Positions 44,846 to 54,922 are shown, counted from the first letter of the stretch. The stretch is 64,000 bases of DNA from Candidatus Parcubacteria bacterium (GCA_026004495.1 BPJG01000001.1:2672-66671), one strand, 5' to 3'. Made by a program: numbers and translations. The notes: generated by a model not told the origin, from the letters alone.

Positions 44846-45799
44846 ATGATATATATTATTTTAATTTCAGCTATAATAGGTTGTTATATTACTTATCATA
44901 TATATTCACACAAATATAAGAAAAAACCTTTAGTTTGCCCCTTAAAAGCTAAATGTGACCCAGTTATTCACAGTGAGTATTCTAAATTTTTAGGAATTGA
45001 AAATACAATTTTAGGTTTTACTTATTATGTTTTTATTTTAATTTTTCATTTATTATTTCTTATTTTTAAATTTAATAATTATTTCTTAGAATTTTTTGTT
45101 TTCAATTTATCACTTTTAGCTGTATTTTTTTCAATTTATTTAACATTTATTCAACTTTTTAAATTAAAAAAGTTTTGTAGTTGGTGTCTTTTATCTGCTT
45201 TATTATGTTTTTTGATTTTTATTAATTCATATTTAATTTATAAAGATACAATAATTAAAGCAGCAATTCAATTACAAAAATTAAGTATTTTTATTCATGC
45301 TTTAACTTCTGGAATTGCTTTAGGAATTGTTTCTGTAGTTGATTATCTGTTTTTTAAATTTCTAAAAGATAAAAAGATTGACGAAAAAGAAAAATCAATT
45401 TTAGATAATTTATCAGATTTTATTTGGTTAATTTTAGGATTAATTATTGTTTCTGGTGTTTTTATTTATTTGTCTGATATGGATAAATATCATAATTCTG
45501 TTAAGTTTATGCTTAAAATGATAATTGTCTTGATTATTGTTATTAATGGATTTTTAATGAATTTAATTGTTTCACCTAAATTAATTGAATTTGACTTTCA
45601 AAAATTAAACAATTTAAAAGAGAGAATTTTTATTTCGATGGGAGTTATTTCTATCACATCTTGGTTATTAGCTTTTATTTTAGGTAGATTAAAAACTATT
45701 CCCCTTAGTTTAATCGAGGCCTTAGGTTTATATTTATTGTTCTTAATAATAACTATAATTAGCAGTATTTTTTTTATTAAATTAAAATTGAAAAATTAA
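44846..45799 (+). CDS. Vitamin K epoxide reductase (VKOR)-family membrane protein with a C-terminal extension
   Basis: Cys pair in the first loop (CPLKAKCDP) and CSWC in TM4. Confidence 0.6.
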   Translation: MIYIILISAIIGCYITYHIYSHKYKKKPLVCPLKAKCDPVIHSEYSKFLGIENTILGFTYYVFILIFHLLFLIFKFNNYFLEFFVFNLSLLAVFFSIYLTFIQLFKLKKFCSWCLLSALLCFLIFINSYLIYKDTIIKAAIQLQKLSIFIHALTSGIALGIVSVVDYLFFKFLKDKKIDEKEKSILDNLSDFIWLILGLIIVSGVFIYLSDMDKYHNSVKFMLKMIIVLIIVINGFLMNLIVSPKLIEFDFQKLNNLKERIFISMGVISITSWLLAFILGRLKTIPLSLIEALGLYLLFLIITIISSIFFIKLKLKN

Positions 45800-45832
45800 A
45801 AGCCTCCTTTTAAATAAAAGGAGGCTTTTGCT
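45799..45832 (+). terminator. Rho-independent terminator
   Basis: AAAGCCTCC-loop-GGAGGCTTTTG. Confidence 0.7.
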
Positions 45833-45854
45833 TTATTTTGATTTCTTATATTTA

Positions 45855-45989
45855 TTAGATATTTTCTTCCTGATCATAAGAGGTTTCTTCATTTGCATTG
45901 CATTGACAACAATTTTGACAACCTTTACAAATTTGACATAATGATTCAGTAATTTGTTGGCAAACTTGACAAACGTTTTGATTTTCCAT
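45855..45989 (-). CDS. 44-aa Cys-rich (8 Cys) small peptide, MENQNVCQVCQQITESLCQICKGCQNCCQCNANEETSYDQEENI. Not in the ORF track.
   Basis: Clean ATG..TAA ORF in an otherwise empty 600-bp intergenic region. CxxC/CxxCxxCxxCCxC pattern. Confidence 0.4.
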   Translation of the reverse strand: MENQNVCQVCQQITESLCQICKGCQNCCQCNANEETSYDQEENI

Positions 45990-46415
45990 TTTTAGGGGAA
46001 TATTAAAAAAAATTTCGACCTTTTATTAAGTAATATATATTATAACATAATATAATATAACACATAGATTTAAAAAATAAATCTTAAATAAATTTAAAAA
46101 ATTATAGTGAAAATAGTTAACAATAAAAATTAGCAAAAAAATTTATTTGCTTGGATTAACAATAAATCTTTATTATGATTTTAATTTTAATAATAAACTA
46201 AGAAAAAATTTTTTTGAGATTTATGGACTTTAAAAATTAATTTGATTAGATTGTATTAAACAAATAAGTAATTTATCTCAATCAATCTATTTTTATTTTT
46301 ACAGAAACGTAATCCACTTTTTATCTCCCTATGGCAAGAAATTTATTGAATTTATAAAAAATTTCGAATAGACCTCGTTTTTAACTAATAAAGTTTTTAA
46401 CCAATAAATACAAAA

Positions 46416-46492
46416 ACATTCTAACATTCTATAGACTACAACCCACCCTCCACATCTTCCCGTTCTTTCGAACGGGCCCCTGTTAGAATGTT
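46416..46492 (+). ncRNA. GC-rich structured element: 12-bp perfect inverted repeat (AACATTCTAACA/TGTTAGAATGTT) enclosing a C-rich segment and an inner hairpin CCCGTTC-TTTC-GAACGGG. Function unknown (candidate sRNA or regulatory structure).
   Basis: Strong local GC enrichment and nested stems in a ~30% GC background, ~100 bp upstream of the methyltransferase gene. Confidence 0.35.
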
Positions 46493-46599
46493 GTTTCGTA
46501 TAAAAAGAGAAAAGGAGAAAAAAGGTATAAGAAAAATTGGAATGGTTTTTAAGATGTATAAAATTTATTATTCCTCAAGATATGCTAAAATTTAATTAA

Positions 46600-49197
46600 A
46601 TGGCACAGAATTACAAAGAAAAATTTTATGGGATATTAGAGGATATGTTTGTAGGAGATGCTGAGATAGAAGGGCAGGGAGGGTTTATTAATCTTTTAAA
46701 AATCAAGCAAAATTACTATCAAAAAGTTTTTAAACCAAAACTTGAAGAAAAAGTAAATGAAATTTTAACTAAATATCCAAATTTTGAGACAGAACTTTTT
46801 GAAAAACTTTATACATTCCTTTCTCGTTATTTTTCTGAATCAGGCTCAATTTATTTTGTTAATACTCCATCTTATCATCAAATTTATGAAAGAATTTACT
46901 CGGATAGAGAAGATGTAATTTTATTCTGGAAAACAAGAGATCTTTATTACATAAAAACAGATAGAATATATAAAAGTTTAGAAGTTGAAATAGAAAATTA
47001 TAAATTTTATTTTGATGTTTCAAAACTTGAATACAAAAAAGCAAACGAAAAAAGAGAAATAATTTATGAACTTGACAAAGATAAAACAACAAAAGATAAA
47101 ATTTACTTTTATGTTTATTATTCAGAAAGAGGAAAGACAACAAAAATTGAAGAGATATTAAAAGCATTAAAAAAGAAAGATATTAAACTTAATGAAGAAA
47201 TTTTGGAAAAAGCATTTAGAAGATTTGAGCAACAATCAGAAGTAGACTATTTTATTCATAAAAACGCAAAAGCTTTCTTATCAGAACAATTAAAACTTTA
47301 TATTTATAACTACCTTTTTAAAGAAGCTCAAAATTGGACAATTGAAAGAATTGATCAGATAAATAAATTTAAAGAAACCGTTGAACTTATAATTGATTTT
47401 GTTTCTAAATTTGAAGATGAATTAGTTAAGATATGGAATAAACCAAGATTTGTTTTAAATTCAAATTATGTAATAACTCTTGATAGAATAATAAAACAAA
47501 ACAAACAAAAAGGATTTGAAATTATAAAGAAAATAATTAAACATAAAAATTTTGATGAGCAAGTTAAGGAATGGAAAGAACTTGGAATTATTGATGAAAA
47601 CTTCAATAAGAATGAAATAATTGAAAAAGATTTAATAGGAGAAAATTTAAATTCAAAATACCAATTTTTGCCAATTGATACAAAATATTTTAAGGATTTA
47701 GAAATTGAAATTTTAGAACTTTTTGATGATTTAGATAATCAATTAGATGGTTGGCTAATAAAAAGTGAAAATTATCAAGCTTTAAATACAATACTTCCAA
47801 AATTTAAAGAAAAAGTACAAACGATTTATATTGATCCACCATTTAATAAAGAACAAGATGCTGATTATCTTTATAATGTTAAATACAAAGATGCTACTTG
47901 GATTACATTACTTGAAAATAGATTAAGATTGGCAAAAGATATTTTGAAGGATACAGGAAGCATTTTTGTAAGATGTGATTATAATGGCAATATGTTTGTT
48001 AAATTATTGATGAATGAAATTTTTGGAAAAGAGAATTTTAGAAATGAGATAATTTTACAGCGAGGTATGCAAACTAGAAAAGCGGAAAAAAGATTGTTAA
48101 ATAAAATCGATTCGCTTTTCTTTTATTTCAAAAGTTTAGAAAAAGGATACTTAAATATTTTACTACGAGAAAAGGAACATGTGATACATTTTAATGAAAC
48201 ATTAAAAGCATTGAAGAAACTGATCGAGCCCAAAGTTTTCGAAGAAATAAAAAATAAATTAAGCGAAACACTCTGGATGCCATTTTTAAGCATGCCAGGA
48301 GAACAAAAAACAAAAAATTCAAGAGAAATTTTTGGTATTAAACTTTATCCTCCCAAAGGAAGACATTGGGCATTTTCACAAGAGAATTTAAATTTGGCAA
48401 TTGAAAAAGGTATAGCGAGATTAGTTTGTAAAAATTGTGGAACTATAATATTAGATAAAAGCCAAATAGAAAATAGAAAATGCAAAAATTGTGGCGGAGC
48501 AGATTTAGAAGGACAAATTTATAGTTTATATAATCAAATAAATGATAATTGGACAGATATACCAGGTTACGAACAAGATCCAGATTTTCCTACTAAAAAC
48601 TCTGAAATTCTCTTAAAGCGTGTTATAGAATCAACATCTAACGAAGGCGATTTAGTTATGGATTTCTTTTTAGGAAGTGGTACAACAACAGCAGTAGCAC
48701 ATAAGCTCAAAAGAAAATGGCTTGGTGTTGAGATGGGTGAGCATTTTTACAGCGTGGTTTTGCCGAGAATGAAAAAAGTTTTGGCTTATGATAAATCTGG
48801 AATTTCAAAAGAAAAAGATATAAAAGAGAAATATAACGAAAACAATGCTGGAGGATTTTTTAAATACTACGAACTTGAGCAATATGAAGATATTTTAAGA
48901 AAAGCGAAATATCAAGATATAAACGAACCAAAAACATTATTTGATAAGGACTTTAATTATATTTTTATGCCTGATGAAAAAATGTTATCAGCATTAGAAA
49001 TTGATTATGAAAACAACAAAGTTAAATTTGATTTAAATAAAATTTACCCAAATATTGATATTGCTGAAACATTATTAAACTTGAAAGGAAAATGGATAAA
49101 GAAAATTACGAAAGATTATATTGAATTTGAGGATGGAGAAAAAATAGATTTAAATAATTTAGATTTAAAGTCGGTTAAAAATTTAATATGGTGGTGA
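46600..49197 (+). CDS. Large (865 aa) beta-class amino-DNA methyltransferase (Type III Mod-like N6A/N4C MTase). It has a ~400-aa uncharacterised N-terminal region and a Cys4 zinc ribbon.
   Basis: Motif IV IYIDPPFN precedes motif I VMDFFLGSGTT (beta-class order). CKNCG...CKNCGG ribbon in the presumed TRD. Confidence 0.75.
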   Translation: MAQNYKEKFYGILEDMFVGDAEIEGQGGFINLLKIKQNYYQKVFKPKLEEKVNEILTKYPNFETELFEKLYTFLSRYFSESGSIYFVNTPSYHQIYERIYSDREDVILFWKTRDLYYIKTDRIYKSLEVEIENYKFYFDVSKLEYKKANEKREIIYELDKDKTTKDKIYFYVYYSERGKTTKIEEILKALKKKDIKLNEEILEKAFRRFEQQSEVDYFIHKNAKAFLSEQLKLYIYNYLFKEAQNWTIERIDQINKFKETVELIIDFVSKFEDELVKIWNKPRFVLNSNYVITLDRIIKQNKQKGFEIIKKIIKHKNFDEQVKEWKELGIIDENFNKNEIIEKDLIGENLNSKYQFLPIDTKYFKDLEIEILELFDDLDNQLDGWLIKSENYQALNTILPKFKEKVQTIYIDPPFNKEQDADYLYNVKYKDATWITLLENRLRLAKDILKDTGSIFVRCDYNGNMFVKLLMNEIFGKENFRNEIILQRGMQTRKAEKRLLNKIDSLFFYFKSLEKGYLNILLREKEHVIHFNETLKALKKLIEPKVFEEIKNKLSETLWMPFLSMPGEQKTKNSREIFGIKLYPPKGRHWAFSQENLNLAIEKGIARLVCKNCGTIILDKSQIENRKCKNCGGADLEGQIYSLYNQINDNWTDIPGYEQDPDFPTKNSEILLKRVIESTSNEGDLVMDFFLGSGTTTAVAHKLKRKWLGVEMGEHFYSVVLPRMKKVLAYDKSGISKEKDIKEKYNENNAGGFFKYYELEQYEDILRKAKYQDINEPKTLFDKDFNYIFMPDEKMLSALEIDYENNKVKFDLNKIYPNIDIAETLLNLKGKWIKKITKDYIEFEDGEKIDLNNLDLKSVKNLIWW

Positions 49198-49201
49198 GAA
49201 G

Positions 49202-49669
49202 ATGGAAAATGAAATTTTAAAAATAATTTTAAATAATATATTACCTTCTGTTATTCTTTTTATTTTATATAAATTTGTAGAAGAATTTATAATAAAACCG
49301 CATTTGGAATACAAAAAAATAATAGCTAAAATTGATCATTTTTTGAAATTTTATCTCAATATAATTTGGAACATCAATCCACCTACTAGAACTAAGCCGT
49401 ATGAACCCTTACCCGAAGATTGGGGAAAAGCAAAAGAAACATTTAGAAACTTATCTTGCGAGCTAGAAGCTCAATATAAATCTATGATTTTAAAACGTTT
49501 TTTGCCCAATAAGAAGTATATTGACACTGCAATTAAGGATTTAATGATATTATCAAACATAATAGGCACTGTAAATGATTATAAAGGTGCATTTCAAAAC
49601 AAAGCAATTAACTTAGAAGAAGAAATTAGAACATGCTTAAGAATATCTCGAATGATCGATGAAAAATAA
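49202..49669 (+). CDS. Hypothetical 155-aa protein with an N-terminal TM segment, in the mod-res operon
   Basis: Begins 5 bp after the mod stop and overlaps the next gene by 11 bp. No motif recognised. Confidence 0.4.
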   Translation: MENEILKIILNNILPSVILFILYKFVEEFIIKPHLEYKKIIAKIDHFLKFYLNIIWNINPPTRTKPYEPLPEDWGKAKETFRNLSCELEAQYKSMILKRFLPNKKYIDTAIKDLMILSNIIGTVNDYKGAFQNKAINLEEEIRTCLRISRMIDEK

Positions 49670-50432
49670 AAATTTATCAATTAAGCAAAAACAAGAAATA
49701 ATAAGAAAGAAAGCAAGAGAAATATTAGAAAAACATAATGAGGGAATAAGATATATGGATTTAGTAAGAAAAGTTAAAGAAGAATGCCCGGGAATAGACT
49801 TGCGTAGAATTAAGTGGGAAGTTTGGTATTTACCAAGGATATCCCAAGATGTAATAAAACCCGAGAGAGGACTGCTTATTTTGAAAAAATATTATGAGGA
49901 AATTTCAAAAGGAGAAACAGAGGTAAAAGAAAAAAGAATTTATAGAATAGATGAATCTGTTTTTTATCAACATTTTGCTGATTATTTAGTGAATGAATTA
50001 GAAGAATGTACAAAAGCTATATCATTGGGAGGAAGTAGATTCCAGGATAAGTGGGGAACTCCTGATGTATTGGGAATATATAAAATTTCTGAAACTGAAC
50101 CCATAAGACCTTTGCCTGAAATAATAAGCGCTGAAATAAAAATTGATATTAATCAATTAATAACTGCTTTTGGCCAGGCTTGTGCTTATAAATTATTTAG
50201 TCATAAAGTTTATTTAGTTGTGCCTAAGGATGCTTCGCCTGTGGATTTGAGCAGATTAGAATCTTTATGCTTAAGATTTAGTATTGGTTTAATAACTTTT
50301 GATAGAAATAATTCTCAAAATCCAGATTTTAGAATAATAACGAGAGCAATTAAAAGCGAACCTGATTATTTTTATGTTAATGAATATTTAAGAAGATTAG
50401 ATAAAAGAGATTTAAAAGAGTTATTTGGATAA
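49659..50432 (+). CDS. Hypothetical 257-aa protein: N-terminal winged-helix-like region plus a possible PD-(D/E)xK-like (Mrr/restriction-endonuclease-like) core
   Basis: ...GGSRFQDKWGTPDVLGIYK...PEIISAEIKID (candidate D...ExK). Overlaps the res start by 8 bp. The fold assignment is speculative. Confidence 0.35.
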   Translation: MKNKNLSIKQKQEIIRKKAREILEKHNEGIRYMDLVRKVKEECPGIDLRRIKWEVWYLPRISQDVIKPERGLLILKKYYEEISKGETEVKEKRIYRIDESVFYQHFADYLVNELEECTKAISLGGSRFQDKWGTPDVLGIYKISETEPIRPLPEIISAEIKIDINQLITAFGQACAYKLFSHKVYLVVPKDASPVDLSRLESLCLRFSIGLITFDRNNSQNPDFRIITRAIKSEPDYFYVNEYLRRLDKRDLKELFG

Positions 50433-53304
50433 ATTTATGAATATTAAACTTATCTTAAAAAACATACTTGAAAACATTGATTTAAACGATCTATCTTCTA
50501 ATTGGCATAATTTTGATTTTGAGAGTTTTTCGAAAGATAAGAAGCTTTATGATTTTCAAATTGAGGCGTTAGAGAATTTTTTAAAAGTTTTGTGGTTTTA
50601 TTACGAAAAAGACTTTGATTACCAAGAAGGAGAAAATTTAGAAATCAATGATAAAAGAAAAGAAAAATTGTTTAAAGAATATTTAGATTATGATTTAAAT
50701 CATAAAGATGTTTCTCTTAAATACAAGGAAGAAAAGAAACATAAATTTATTTTTGAGTATTATCCTTTAGAAAATGAAGAAATAAATTTTAAGCATCTGG
50801 TGAATAGAGCTGGGTTTTGGATGGCGACAGGAAGTGGAAAAACATTAGTAATTGTTAAAATTATTGAATTTTTAAGAGAATTGATAAAAAGAAAAGAAAT
50901 TCCTAATTTTGATATTTTATTTTTAACTCACAGAGAAGACTTAATAAATCAATTTAAAAAGCATATTGAAGAATATAATGAAGGTATGGAAGATAAAATT
51001 ACAGTTTATGATTTAAAAGAATACGAAGAATTAAAAAGAAATTTATTTTGTCAAAATTTTGTTTTTTACTATAGAGCTGATTTGTTTTCTGATGAAGAAA
51101 AAGAAAAGATTGTAGATTTTAGAAATTATTATAATGATGGGAAGTGGTTTGTAATTTTAGATGAAGCTCATAAAGGTGATACTGAAGAATCAAAAAGACA
51201 ACATATATTTTCAATACTTTCTAAAAATGGATTTCTATTTAATTTTTCAGCAACTTTTAGTGATCCTATTGATTTAATTACCACTTGTTTTGAATATAAT
51301 CTTTCAACATTTATTGAAAATGGTTATGGAAAGAAAATTTATATTTCAGATTATGAAGCAAGAGTTTTTAAGAATAAAGATGATTTTAGACAAAAAGAAA
51401 AGCAAAAAATTATTTTAAAAGGGTTAATTCTTTTCACTTATATTAAAAAGCAGTTAAATAAAATTAGAGAAAAAATTTTAAATGCTTATCATAATCCATT
51501 ACTCCTTGTTTTAGTGAATTCTGTAAATCAAGAAGATGCTGATTTAAAGTTATTTTTTGAAGAAATTAAAAACATAGTAGAAGGGAGTTTTGATAAGGGT
51601 TTAATTGAAGAAACTAAAAATGAATTAATTAAAGAATTTAAAGAAAAAGAAGAATTTGTAATTCCGGAAAATGATAAATTAAAGATAGATTTTAATTTGC
51701 TTTCAGAAATAAATTATCAGGATATTTTAAAAGATGTTTTTAATTCTGGTGAAGAAGGAAAAATAGAAATTTCTTATAGTCCCAGAGAAAAAGGAGAAGT
51801 TGCTTTTAAATTAAAAACATCTACTTCTCATTTTGCTTTGATTAAAACAGGAGCTATGCCAGATTGGCTTGAAAGTTCTTTAAATAAATTTGAAGTTAAT
51901 CATAAATTTGAAAACGAGAAGTTTTTTGAAGAAATAAATAGTGAAAATTCATCAATAAATATATTATTAGGTTCAAGAGTTTTTTATGAAGGATGGGACT
52001 CAAACAGACCAAATATTATTATGTTTATAAATATAGGTACGCAAAAAGATGCTAAAAAATTCGTTTTACAATCAATTGGAAGAGGTATAAGAATTGAACC
52101 GATAAAAAATGAAAGAAAAAGATTTTTGTATATTAAAGAAAAAATGGGTGAAGTTTTTGATGAAATTAAAGATTATATTTCGTCGATAGAAAGTTTATTT
52201 ATTTTTGGAACTAATAAAAATGCTATTGAAACTATAATTAAAGAGGTTAATACATTCAAAAAAGAAACATTTAGGGGTGTTAAAATCTCTCTTTTCAAAA
52301 ATGTTGAAGCAATCAAAGAGAATATTTTGTTAGTACCGAAATATAAAGAGGGAGAAAAAAGAATTTTTGAAGAAGAGATTAGATATGGAATTTCTGAAAA
52401 TGATTTTGAAAAATTAAAAGAATTTAATGAATTTATTAGAGATGACAGAGTTTTGTTAATGTTTTTTAATACTGAACCAAAATTAATTAAATATTTTAGG
52501 GAATCTTTGACTAAGCAAGTTGAATTAGATAGCGGAAATTATTATAAAAAAGCAGATTTAGAAAGAGTGGATGTTAAGGTAATTTTAACTGATATTTTTA
52601 GTTTTTGGGGAGCAAGATTTAAAGATTTTGAAAAGCTGGAGGAATTAAAAGATGAAATAAGGCATTTTGAAAATGTTGTTATTGAAGAAGCTAAATTCAA
52701 AGATTTTAACTCTATAAAAGAAGCTGTTTTGAGCACAAAAAGAAGTTTACCGTTTGAAAATTTGAAATTGGAATATATAGCTAATCATTATTATTTCCCT
52801 TTAATTTTAAGTAAAGATGAAAAAATTGATTATATTAAACATATCATTAAAACAAAAAGTGAAGTTGAATTTATTGAAAAACTTGAAAATTACTTAGATT
52901 CAGAAAATAATAAATTTAAAGAATTTGATTGGTGGATGTTTAGTAAAATTGATGAGAGTTTAGACGAAGTTTATATTCCTTATTATGATATTGAAAAAGG
53001 TTCTATAAGAAAATTTAAACCAGATTTTATATTTTGGCTTAAAAAAGCTAATAATTATTTTATTGTTTTTGTTGATCCAAAATCTACAAAATTCACTGAT
53101 TATGAAAATAAAATTTCTTGGTATAAAAGATTATTTGAAAAGAATGACAAACTAAAGGCTTTTGAATATAAAAACTTGAAATGTTATGTATATTGTTTCT
53201 TATATACCGATGATAAAGACAAAGTGAAAAATTTTGGTTATGAAAATTATTGGTTTGAAAGTATAGATGATATGTTGGCAAAAATTCTAAAAATGTCTTT
53301 TTAA
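50425..53304 (+). CDS. Type III restriction Res-like protein: SF2 DEAH helicase plus a C-terminal PD-(D/E)xK nuclease
   Basis: Walker A MATGSGKTLV, DEAH box VILDEAHKGD, motif III FSATFSD, motif VI QSIGRGIRI and C-terminal KPDFIFW..(15)..VDPK. Confidence 0.75.
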   Translation: MDKFMNIKLILKNILENIDLNDLSSNWHNFDFESFSKDKKLYDFQIEALENFLKVLWFYYEKDFDYQEGENLEINDKRKEKLFKEYLDYDLNHKDVSLKYKEEKKHKFIFEYYPLENEEINFKHLVNRAGFWMATGSGKTLVIVKIIEFLRELIKRKEIPNFDILFLTHREDLINQFKKHIEEYNEGMEDKITVYDLKEYEELKRNLFCQNFVFYYRADLFSDEEKEKIVDFRNYYNDGKWFVILDEAHKGDTEESKRQHIFSILSKNGFLFNFSATFSDPIDLITTCFEYNLSTFIENGYGKKIYISDYEARVFKNKDDFRQKEKQKIILKGLILFTYIKKQLNKIREKILNAYHNPLLLVLVNSVNQEDADLKLFFEEIKNIVEGSFDKGLIEETKNELIKEFKEKEEFVIPENDKLKIDFNLLSEINYQDILKDVFNSGEEGKIEISYSPREKGEVAFKLKTSTSHFALIKTGAMPDWLESSLNKFEVNHKFENEKFFEEINSENSSINILLGSRVFYEGWDSNRPNIIMFINIGTQKDAKKFVLQSIGRGIRIEPIKNERKRFLYIKEKMGEVFDEIKDYISSIESLFIFGTNKNAIETIIKEVNTFKKETFRGVKISLFKNVEAIKENILLVPKYKEGEKRIFEEEIRYGISENDFEKLKEFNEFIRDDRVLLMFFNTEPKLIKYFRESLTKQVELDSGNYYKKADLERVDVKVILTDIFSFWGARFKDFEKLEELKDEIRHFENVVIEEAKFKDFNSIKEAVLSTKRSLPFENLKLEYIANHYYFPLILSKDEKIDYIKHIIKTKSEVEFIEKLENYLDSENNKFKEFDWWMFSKIDESLDEVYIPYYDIEKGSIRKFKPDFIFWLKKANNYFIVFVDPKSTKFTDYENKISWYKRLFEKNDKLKAFEYKNLKCYVYCFLYTDDKDKVKNFGYENYWFESIDDMLAKILKMSF

Positions 53305-53363
53305 AATCTATTAATATATTAAATCTATGTAATTTTCATTATTCATTGTCATAGTAGAAAATA

Positions 53364-53900
53364 ATGAAAAATTACTTAGTAATTAAACGAAAAGTGAAGT
53401 ATTTGAGGTTGGAGATAAGGGAGTTTAATTTGAGGGTGATTGTGCCGGAGGGGTTTAGTGGAGATGTTGAGAAAGTTATTGAAAGACATAAAAGGTGGTT
53501 GGAGAAAAAATTTGCTTTGTTGAATGAAATAAAAAGTTTGAGTGAAGGTTTGGAAATTTATAATCACGAGAATTTAGAAGAAATTGTTGATGGATATATA
53601 GATGAAATTAGTCAGATTTTGAAAGTAAGGCCAAAAGAAGTTTCTTTTAGAAATATGAAAGTAAGATGGGGAAGTTGTACTTCAGATGGAAGATTGATTT
53701 TTAATAAAAAATTAAAATTTTTGCCGAAAGAACTTATAAGATATGTTGCTATTCACGAAATGTGTCATTTGTTAGTAAGAAATCATAAAAAAGAATTTTG
53801 GCAATTAGTGGAGAAATTATGTCCTGAATTCAAGAATTATCAAAAGTTGTTAGTGGGGTATAAGATGAGATTAGAGAATAATTTTAAACTATCTTATTAA
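53364..53900 (+). CDS. DUF45/YgjP-like (WLM/SprT-like) zinc metallopeptidase, a type commonly encoded next to R-M helicase subunits
   Basis: HExxH: RYVAIHEMCHLLVRNHKKEFW. Confidence 0.7.
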   Translation: MKNYLVIKRKVKYLRLEIREFNLRVIVPEGFSGDVEKVIERHKRWLEKKFALLNEIKSLSEGLEIYNHENLEEIVDGYIDEISQILKVRPKEVSFRNMKVRWGSCTSDGRLIFNKKLKFLPKELIRYVAIHEMCHLLVRNHKKEFWQLVEKLCPEFKNYQKLLVGYKMRLENNFKLSY

Positions 53901-54017
53901 ATTATTGTGTAATGGTTAACAATAGGATTGTTTTTTTATTATTTCCGAAATGTATTTATCTTTTTCTTAAATAAGTTTAGTGGTTTCTATTTTCCTTTAA
54001 AATTAAGAAATATAATT

Positions 54018-54089
54018 TGGGCGCAGGAGGATTTGAACCTCCGACCTCCTCGATGTGAACGAGGCGTTCTGCCACTGAACTATACGCCC
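54018..54089 (-). tRNA. tRNA-Val (anticodon CAC)
   Basis: GGGCGUAUAGUUCAGUGGCAGAACGCCUCGUUCACAUCGAGGAGGUCGGAGGUUCAAAUCCUCCUGCGCCCA: cloverleaf with a 7-bp acceptor stem, the GGUUCAAAUCC T-arm and anticodon loop UUCACAU. CCA is not encoded. Confidence 0.9.
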
Positions 54090-54244
54090 TTAATATTTTT
54101 GTTTTTTATTTATATTTTTGTTATTTTTTAGATAAATAGATATAATTTAATTTTATCAAAATTTTCAGTTTTAATCTTATTTCATTTATAATTTTGAATA
54201 ATTTAAGGTTGATAACAATAACTTAAAAAACTTAAAATAATATT

Positions 54245-54922
54245 ATGACCGAAAAAACTATTTATCTTTCACCATCAAAACTTAATTTATTTTTAAATTG
54301 TCCTTTATGTTTTTGGTTAAGTGAAGTTGAAAAAGTTCATCGACCAGAAGGAATTTCTTCAACTTTGCCAAGAGGAATGGATCTATTAATTAAAAAATAT
54401 TTTGATAAGTACAGAGCTTTAGGTAAATTACCGCCAGAAATTGAAGGCAAAGTGAGAGGAAAATTAATTAATGAAAGCATTTTAAAAAAATGGCGAACAA
54501 CTCACAAATATAGTGAACCATTTTATTACAATGAAAGATTAGATGCAGTTCTATTTGGTGGATTAGATGAATGTTTGGTCGATGATGAATATTATATTCC
54601 TACTGATTATAAAACTTATGGCTTTGAATTAAAAGAAAACTCTCATTCTTTTCATCAATTACAACTTGATGCCTATACTTTAATGCTTCAGGCTAACGGC
54701 TATAAACATTTAAACTTAGCTTATTTAATTTATTATATTCCTCAAGAAATTAAAGAAAATGGAGTAATTAAGTTCAAAGTTGAAGTAGTTGAAGTTAAGA
54801 CAAATCCAGAAAATGCAAAAATGATTTTTGAATCAGCAATTAATCTCTTAAGAGGGCCAAAACCAAAATCCCATAGTGAATGCGAATATTGCTCTTGGAC
54901 AAACGAGTTTTTTAAGCATTAG
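54245..54922 (+). CDS. Cas4/RecB-family PD-(D/E)xK exonuclease-like protein with a 4-Cys cluster (stand-alone; no CRISPR array or other cas genes present)
   Basis: N-terminal Cys (NCPLCFWL), IPTDYKTYG (D/ExK), the QLQLDAYTLML (QxxxY) motif and C-terminal CEYCSW. Confidence 0.55.
   Translation: MTEKTIYLSPSKLNLFLNCPLCFWLSEVEKVHRPEGISSTLPRGMDLLIKKYFDKYRALGKLPPEIEGKVRGKLINESILKKWRTTHKYSEPFYYNERLDAVLFGGLDECLVDDEYYIPTDYKTYGFELKENSHSFHQLQLDAYTLMLQANGYKHLNLAYLIYYIPQEIKENGVIKFKVEVVEVKTNPENAKMIFESAINLLRGPKPKSHSECEYCSWTNEFFKH

Follow-up and report, generated by a model that had tools for sequence, protein, structure and literature searches.

Two adjacent genes that belong to no nameable family, here called ORF2 and ORF3 (ORF, open reading frame), lie between the methyltransferase gene (mod) and the restriction gene (res) of a restriction-modification (R-M) operon of Type III in Candidatus Parcubacteria bacterium (KatS3mg095). 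Their position raises the question of whether they are subunits of the restriction enzyme or passengers of its operon, and whether the two belong together. The operon is part of a stretch of 64,000 nucleotides (nt; GCA_026004495.1, BPJG01000001.1:2672-66671), referred to below as the window, from whose first letter coordinates are counted unless another locus is named. Our analysis favours, with a probability of about 60%, the reading that ORF2 (KatS3mg095_0516, identical) and ORF3 (KatS3mg095_0517, identical) are separable accessory cargo, probably translationally coupled, and that they would provide a second line of defence co-expressed with the R-M system. An original prediction made from the sequence of the window had already drawn attention to the two ORFs; its observation was confirmed and its interpretation was supported in part. 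Both ORFs were found where they had been placed between mod and res, and their homologues (3,265 clusters for ORF3 and 631 representatives for ORF2) identify them as real genes rather than chance ORFs.

Gene order and contents of the mod-res junction

The gene order on the + strand was mod, ORF2, ORF3, res and a gene for a YgjP-like metallopeptidase. The first four of these genes and the junction between ORF2 and ORF3 are located as follows:

46600..49197, + strand: mod, Type III DNA methyltransferase, 865 amino acids (aa); PADLOC MTase_III PDLC03638, 988 bits, full length
49202..49669, + strand: ORF2, 155 aa, predicted N-terminal membrane helix and four-helix bundle (from family alignment, AlphaFold (AF2) model, hydrophobicity and contexts)
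49659..49669, + strand: ORF2/ORF3 overlap of 11 nt (from reading of the sequence)
49659..50432, + strand: ORF3, 257 aa, two-domain endonuclease candidate (winged helix and PD-(D/E)xK core)
50437..53304, + strand: res, Type III restriction subunit with SF2 helicase and C-terminal nuclease motif (Pfam ResIII, E 1.9e-17)

The operon contains a Mod methylase, whose N6_N4 methyltransferase domain covers aa 406-718 (Pfam N6_N4_Mtase, E 7.5e-42), and a Res protein combining an SF2 helicase with a PD-(D/E)xK motif, the components by which a Type III R-M system is recognized. This C-terminal motif of Res (PDF...(V/I)DPK) was kept in seven homologues. None of the PADLOC REase_III models matched Res, the best match being PDC-M20B (E 0.08), and the Res lineage of the window appears to be missing from PADLOC.

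The plasmid search seeded on Res, which was independent of ORF3, gave two operons of the same Type III family, and both ORF2 and ORF3 were missing from each. On Rhodothermus marinus pRHOM17201 the order was mod, nucleotidyltransferase, hypothetical protein and res, while on Athalassotoga pATS2 mod overlapped res directly; identity to the window was 39% and 54% for mod and 42% and 43% for res, respectively. ORF2 and ORF3 are dispensable for the Type III system, and a role of ORF3 as obligatory subunit of this family was rejected, as operons without ORF3 exist. The possibility that ORF3 supplies a nuclease lacking in Res was likewise rejected, as Res keeps its conserved PD...DxK motif. A separate feature of the Athalassotoga plasmid is an IS256 insertion that splits res (L105, 5938-10222).

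The genomic contexts of ORF3 were examined in 78 usable genome loci with fetched flanks of up to 8 kb on each side. ORF3 was wedged between Type III mod and res with spacers of 2-12 nt in L001, L002, L006, L009, L010, L012, L017, L019 and L024, and it occupied the same position in the metagenome contigs L100 and L101; in total, ORF3 lay between defence genes in the window, in about 11 of the 78 genome loci and in these two contigs. Other genes shared the junction in several of these relatives, namely HEPN_AbiU2 (L002), DUF3800 (L012), GmrSD together with a Peptidase_M78 protein (L017), an AAA_15/AAA_21 ATPase plus a 156-aa protein (bacterium HR35, L001), and an SDH-type protease plus an AAA_14 ATPase (L101). 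Since it holds other known or suspected defence cargo in ORF3-bearing relatives, the mod-res junction behaves as a cargo slot, and since related Type III operons carry other cargo or none, ORF2 and ORF3 are regarded as embedded passengers and not as core subunits. In L101 (3126-6702, - strand) ORF3 is flanked by the SDH-type/NfeD-like serine protease and the AAA_14 (NB-ARC-like) ATPase, which may constitute another embedded system.

A closer tie, in which ORF3 would be an extra subunit or cofactor of the window's Type III enzyme, produced in coordination with Res and joining it on the same DNA (perhaps as an additional nuclease or to assist target recognition), is unlikely on balance. It draws on the close spacing of ORF3 and res in several lineages, with 2-6 nt from stop to start or else a 4-nt overlap, and on the distribution of the ORF3s embedded in Type III operons, which form three clades. 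The mod/res family of L009 and L012 is unlike that of the window, and one clade contains ORF3s of 82-89% identity that are placed alike in operons whose mod/res families are unrelated (L009 and L012 versus L006 and L010). However, about three quarters of the ORF3 loci lacked a helicase or methylase partner, unrelated genes can separate ORF3 from res (L001, L017 and L101), and both the existence of related operons without ORF3 and the nuclease motif retained by Res argue in the same direction.

ORF3: predicted fold and genomic contexts

At E<=1e-3 ORF3 had 3,265 homologous clusters in bacteria and archaea, of which the best 120 all had a length of about 250 aa and shared 55-86% identity with it. 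With one genome scanned per species, the family was found in about 350 of 185,579 species, at 45-86% identity to the window protein. Bacterial hosts include Patescibacteria, Planctomycetota, Aquificota, Acidobacteriota, Chloroflexota and Bacteroidota, and there were many archaeal hosts, e.g. Methanophagales, Bathyarchaeia, Woesearchaeota and Thermoplasmata. Despite this size the family has no database name: ORF3 had no above-threshold match in Pfam, NCBIfam, PHROGs or PADLOC, and neither ORF3 nor ORF2 had any match in PADLOC v2.0.0 at E<=1, PDC candidates included. The statement that neither protein belongs to a nameable family therefore held for Pfam, NCBIfam and PADLOC. Phage collections contained no match to either protein, and plasmid collections contained a single match to ORF3, on Novosphingobium pSA1 (36% identity, in an unannotated region).

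The AF2 model of ORF3 (mean predicted local distance difference test score (pLDDT) 85.8) comprised an N-terminal winged helix (aa 8-75), which had been proposed as possible from the sequence, a disordered linker (aa 85-95) and a core (aa 101-228). The corresponding segments of the gene are:

49680..49883, + strand: predicted Rok-type winged-helix domain, aa 8-75
49959..50342, + strand: predicted nuclease core, aa 101-228, alpha-beta-beta-beta-alpha-beta topology
50064-50066 (D136), 50133-50135 (E159), 50139-50141 (K161), 50175-50177 (Q173) and 50187-50189 (Y177), + strand: codons of the putative catalytic residues

In the model P135-D136 opens the second strand (137-141), E159-I-K161 closes the third (155-160) and a QxxxY motif of the RecB/NucS type lies on the helix following ExK. 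The modelled core topology, in which strand 2 bears the D and strand 3 the (D/E)xK, places ORF3 in the PD-(D/E)xK superfamily by predicted fold. Residues that were invariant in an alignment of 32 members include E116-C117, G124-G125 and W132-G-T-P135-D136-V137 as well as S157-x-E159-I-K161 and F171-G-Q173-A-C175-x-Y177-K178. ORF3 carries the strings GGSRFQDKWGTPDVLGIYK and AEIKID from which a nuclease core had been proposed, and the catalytic residues D136, E159 and K161 were located where the original prediction had put them. Its description of the motif as degenerate was not upheld; the motif has the canonical form and counts among the best-conserved stretches of a family that is itself highly conserved.

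The suggested relationship to Mrr did not extend to the family level. ORF3 resembles the Mrr Type IV enzymes in combining a winged helix at the N-terminus with a PD-(D/E)xK domain at the C-terminus and in being encoded by a small, usually solitary gene in variable regions. It differs from them in the lack of any sequence-profile relationship, with no match to Mrr_cat (PF04471) or Mrr_N (PF14338) at E<=1 and a probability of 0.7% when the ORF3 family profile was compared by hhalign with an Mrr_cat protein (L085, 9764-10747), in the QxxxY motif of its nuclease domain and in its winged helix, which is nearest to Rok. The likeness to Mrr is one of domain plan only. The winged helix may also resemble HARE-HTH/Mrr_N domains, to which no Pfam match was obtained.

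Structural comparison by Foldseek gave AF2093 over the full length (E 1.2e-3), followed by BsaWI, FokI and XisH. AF2093 is a structural-genomics protein of Archaeoglobus fulgidus (PDB 2ph7) to which ORF3 is only about 6-10% identical, and a literature search on AF2093/2ph7 returned nothing relevant. The N-terminus of ORF3 matched the Rok DNA-binding domain with probability 1.00 and 26% identity, and the family profile recovered Rok from the PDB at E 8.9e-4. On the window protein itself the WH_Rok model (Pfam PF23159) reached 15.7 bits against a gathering cut-off of 27.6, and the homologue P0012 has a precomputed PF23159 match. The N-terminal domain aligned over the entire C-terminal winged-helix DNA-binding domain of Rok, a xenogeneic silencer of Bacillus subtilis, which, unlike ORF3, has no nuclease domain.

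Examination of the 78 genome loci revealed an N6_N4 methylase in the flanks of 19 and none in those of the other 59, while Pfam ResIII was among the immediate neighbours in 11. When ORFs within 3 kb of ORF3 were clustered, the N6_N4 methyltransferase (15 loci) and Res (6 loci) were the only recurrent families, and no further methylase family recurred; the other neighbours were varied and included tRNA synthetases, kinases and further housekeeping genes. ORF3 can stand alone, and this speaks against its being a sequence-specific nuclease dependent on a protective methylase; with a methylase at only 19 of the 78 loci it is not an R-M-specific component. The original prediction had named a broad occurrence of orthologs outside R-M contexts as an outcome that would count against it; such an occurrence was found for ORF3, while the opposite was the case for ORF2.

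These contexts bear directly on the idea that ORF3 is a classical Type II-like restriction endonuclease paired with an adjacent N6_N4 methylase, which we consider very unlikely. Small methylases of 290-360 aa adjoin ORF3 in L033, L054, L056 and L075; L054 and L075 have the look of a two-gene cassette, with the pair bordered by housekeeping genes, and the N6_N4 methyltransferase is the only recurrent neighbour family. A linked N6_N4 methylase, as a classical Type II system would require, was nevertheless confined to the 19 loci, and at the remaining 59 an unprotected sequence-specific nuclease would be lethal. The adjoining methylases are, moreover, unrelated in size and family, while the conservation of ORF3 is high and extends to its winged helix.

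The very high conservation of ORF3 across the domains of life, the appearance of NucS among its best structural matches, its QxxxY motif of the RecB/NucS type and the many housekeeping genes in its neighbourhood could also be accommodated by an accessory DNA repair or structure-specific nuclease, comparable to NucS or a resolvase, that rides in variable regions and has no part in defence. This is improbable in view of a scattered occurrence (in about 350 of 185,579 species genomes, from many phyla), the lack of recurrent repair-gene neighbours among the loci and the repeated insertion in R-M operons amid known defence cargo. ORF3 differs from NucS/EndoMS and RecB-like proteins in its N-terminal domain and did not match the Pfam PDDEXK_1, NucS or Cas4 profiles at E<=1; its patchy spread and its location in R-M operons are also unlike those of a core repair gene such as NucS/EndoMS.

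The ORF2 family and its association with restriction genes

Exhaustive HMMER searches recovered 631 representatives of the ORF2 family at E<=1e-3 and 103 at E<=1e-10, all of about 140-170 aa, where a word-indexed search had found three relatives only. Neither ORF2 itself (Pfam, NCBIfam and PADLOC) nor 50 members of its family (Pfam) gave a match; the ORF2 searches against PHROGs gave a weak match only (phrog_7512, E 0.037), and one family member compared with the plasmid collections had no match there. The family shares an N-terminal hydrophobic helix and a conserved proline as well as the motifs YK..I.KIDN.LKFY, LR.LSC.LE..YK, LI.LSN and IRK.L.I, and its alignments (A5 and A6) contained no conserved stretch of 7-10 residues.

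The length of 155 aa originally given for ORF2 was correct, and the N-terminal transmembrane segment assigned to it finds support in the hydrophobic N-terminal helix, which is a trait of the family. The best 19-residue Kyte-Doolittle window reached at least 1.6 in 47 of 50 members, and for 49 of 50 its starting point was among the first 30 residues. In the AF2 model (pLDDT 83.5) helices span residues 2-57, 72-94, 104-123 and 130-146, and the protein reads as a predicted membrane anchor (about aa 5-27) joined to a four-helix bundle.

Twelve contexts were sampled from contigs encoding family members, and in ten of these the ORF2-family gene was inside an R-M or methylase cluster. It was located immediately upstream of hsdR or res in eight contexts, in most of them 2-19 nt away, with a 4-nt overlap and 192 nt as the extremes. 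Type I contexts were those of L081, L089, L091, L094 and L096, where the gene directly precedes hsdR, and of L097, where it follows just past hsdS, while Type III contexts with the gene directly before res were L085/L086, L087/L088 and L095. L083 contained two N6_N4 methylases followed by the ORF2-family gene, and the two remaining contexts were near GmrSD/HNH genes (L090) and near Fic/VbhA genes (L093). The ORF2 family is strongly R-M-linked.

Two of these layouts contain further genes. The Type III layout of L085-L088 and L095 consists of an SNF2 helicase, DUF4391, a variable gene (KAP NTPase, TIR or AAA ATPase), mod, the ORF2-family gene and res. In the Type I operon of L097-L099 (Candidatus Portnoybacteria) eight genes are nested between hsdM and hsdR, encoding an NYN-like protein, four unnamed ORFs (one fewer in L099), the ORF2-family protein, DUF3800 and a 157-aa ORF.

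Whether ORF2 and ORF3 form one two-gene system, with the membrane protein working together with the nuclease, depends on how regularly they occur together. The overlap of 11 nt was present in both the window and HR35, and the order ORF2-then-ORF3 was found in the closest relatives of ORF2, i.e. HR35 and two further contig types, L083/L084/L102 and L100 (mod, a 242-aa ORF, the ORF2-family gene, ORF3 and res). In these further types ORF2 was 47% identical to that of the window, as was ORF3 over the comparable part (L083 being a fragment). However, 78 of 80 ORF3 genome loci lacked a member of the ORF2 family, L001 being the only one to carry it, and ORF3 was absent from 10 of 11 ORF2-family contexts outside the operon lineage of the window. 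L101 is particularly informative in this respect: its ORF3 is closely related to that of L100, with an exact 43-nt stretch in common and nearly equal profile scores, yet other genes replace ORF2. For this reason we consider ORF2 and ORF3 to be separable; they are mostly not a fixed pair, and a single two-gene system is improbable.

Probable transcription unit and proposed roles of ORF2 and ORF3

Cargo inserted between mod and res would be co-expressed with them if the genes form one transcription unit. The start codon of ORF2 (ATG at 49202) follows the mod stop codon (TGA at 49195-49197) after a 4-nt spacer and thus begins on the fifth base, in line with the distance of 5 bp given by the original prediction. 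ORF3 starts (ATG at 49659) inside the end of ORF2 (TAA at 49667-49669), and this arrangement, which recurs in HR35, suggests that the two are translationally coupled. Of the overlaps with both neighbours that had been claimed for ORF3, the one with ORF2 stood, and the one with res is uncertain, being real only if res uses the alternative TTG start at 50425; an in-frame ATG (50437) sits 4 nt past the ORF3 stop and is where the alignment with Res homologues begins. The limits of the unit are given by two further features:

45797..45830, no strand assigned: bidirectional terminator-like hairpin that closes the upstream gene; upstream edge of the transcription unit
53364..53900, + strand: YgjP-like (WLM/SprT-like) metallopeptidase gene (Pfam YgjP-like, E 3.1e-39)

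The metallopeptidase gene lies directly 3' of res, as it does in HR35 (76% identity), and is probably the last gene of the operon. No terminator-like hairpin was found in a scan from 45830 to 54300, and mod, ORF2, ORF3, res and the YgjP-like gene are for this reason probably a single transcription unit.

Several other features were observed in and around the operon. The methylase domain of Mod contains a CxxC...CxxC zinc-ribbon-like insert (aa 595-637, 48382-48510) with weak matches to HypA, Spt4 and Zn-ribbon. Upstream of mod, about 770 nt (45831-46599) contain no ORF longer than 44 aa; the best promoter-like site in this region (11 of 12 matches) was at 45915-45942, and a cysteine-rich 44-aa ORF was present on the minus strand (45855-45989). 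Just past the YgjP-like gene, a tRNA-Val(CAC) gene (54018-54089, - strand; ARAGORN and Rfam) marks the downstream edge of the R-M block and is a possible island integration site. It is followed by an ORF encoding a Cas4-like PD-(D/E)xK protein (54245-54922; PDDEXK_1 E 1e-12, PADLOC Cas4).

The embedding of accessory defence genes in R-M operons is already established, and the ORF2 and ORF3 families are new to it. PrrC sits inside EcoprrI and is triggered upon inhibition of the R-M enzyme (review, PMC12707154), TgvAB, a GmrSD-like Type IV system, sits inside a Type I operon of Vibrio cholerae (PMC11411939), and the guilt-by-embedding survey of Payne et al., restricted to Hma, BREX, DISARM and Type I systems, yielded seven confirmed systems and 145 predicted candidates (bioRxiv 10.1101/2024.01.29.577857). 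For N4-methylcytosine (m4C) Type III systems, one paper reports an additional helicase gene on the 5' side of mod and no genes between mod and res. The locus analyzed here resembles PrrC, TgvAB and the surveyed systems in that unrelated, co-oriented accessory genes are tightly spaced between methylation and restriction genes and in that the contents of the slot differ between relatives. It differs from the surveyed systems in its Type III host and in the lack of any matching PADLOC model. Unlike PrrC, neither ORF2 nor ORF3 combines an ABC-type ATPase with an anticodon-nuclease domain, and GmrSD domains are also missing; what ORF2 has in common with the PrrC/RloC guardians is genomic logic only.

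As accessory cargo, ORF3 would act as a self-sufficient DNA endonuclease whose Rok-type winged helix binds and whose RecB/NucS-like PD-(D/E)xK domain cuts DNA. Because most of its relatives live without a methylase, it most likely spares ordinary host DNA and responds to a feature of foreign DNA. Base modification, as for Type IV enzymes, is our leading guess for this trigger, and ORF3 might thereby cover phages that escape the Type III enzyme, in the manner in which GmrSD-type enzymes supplement Type I and BREX systems. ORF2 would be a small protein with its N-terminal helix in the membrane and its four-helix bundle in the cytoplasm. Given its link to the restriction gene in two types of R-M system and its predicted membrane anchor, it probably cooperates with the restriction subunit or keeps it under surveillance, either as a membrane effector or guardian released upon a block of restriction or as a tether or regulator of that subunit. 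The analysis thus shows that the genes are real and gives their predicted folds, their motifs, family sizes and contexts and their dispensability for the Type III system, while the defence function, the modification dependence and the role of ORF2 are inferred.

Several points weigh against this assignment. For a defence nuclease ORF3 is uncommonly well conserved: members from bacteria are 45-60% identical to those from archaea, and the top-residue frequency of the nuclease domain is 0.74, values that one could also expect of a structure-specific or repair enzyme. The fold matches of ORF2 were generic helical bundles that are uninformative on activity, and neither protein matches any PADLOC model. 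The ORF3 loci were gathered via ORF3 itself, which biases the apparent occupancy of the slot and leaves two unbiased Type III operons, and the ORF3s embedded in Type III operons cluster together and are spaced tightly with res, so that a functional tie to the Type III enzyme is possible.

A more specific proposal, which we regard as doubtful but worth stating, is that the ORF2 family might be a dedicated, hitherto unrecognized partner of ATP-dependent restriction subunits (HsdR in Type I and Res in Type III systems). As a membrane-anchored sensor or effector it would either respond to a phage-imposed block of restriction by killing the cell or stopping its growth, like PrrC but through a membrane mechanism, or keep the restriction complex at the membrane, the place of entry of phage DNA; the ORF3 family would represent new, unusually conserved stand-alone defence nucleases.

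The reading of ORF2 and ORF3 as separable accessory cargo would extend the idea of defence genes inside defence systems to Type III R-M operons and brings to light two sizeable families without a database name, that of ORF3 comprising over 3,000 clusters and that of ORF2 no fewer than 631 representatives. The former offers a candidate for a new nuclease that works on its own, is possibly modification-dependent and might find use as a reagent. The ORF2 family strikes us as the more intriguing of the two: its near-exclusive position in R-M loci, usually before the restriction gene of two types of R-M system, suggests a layer of control or backup for restriction enzymes.

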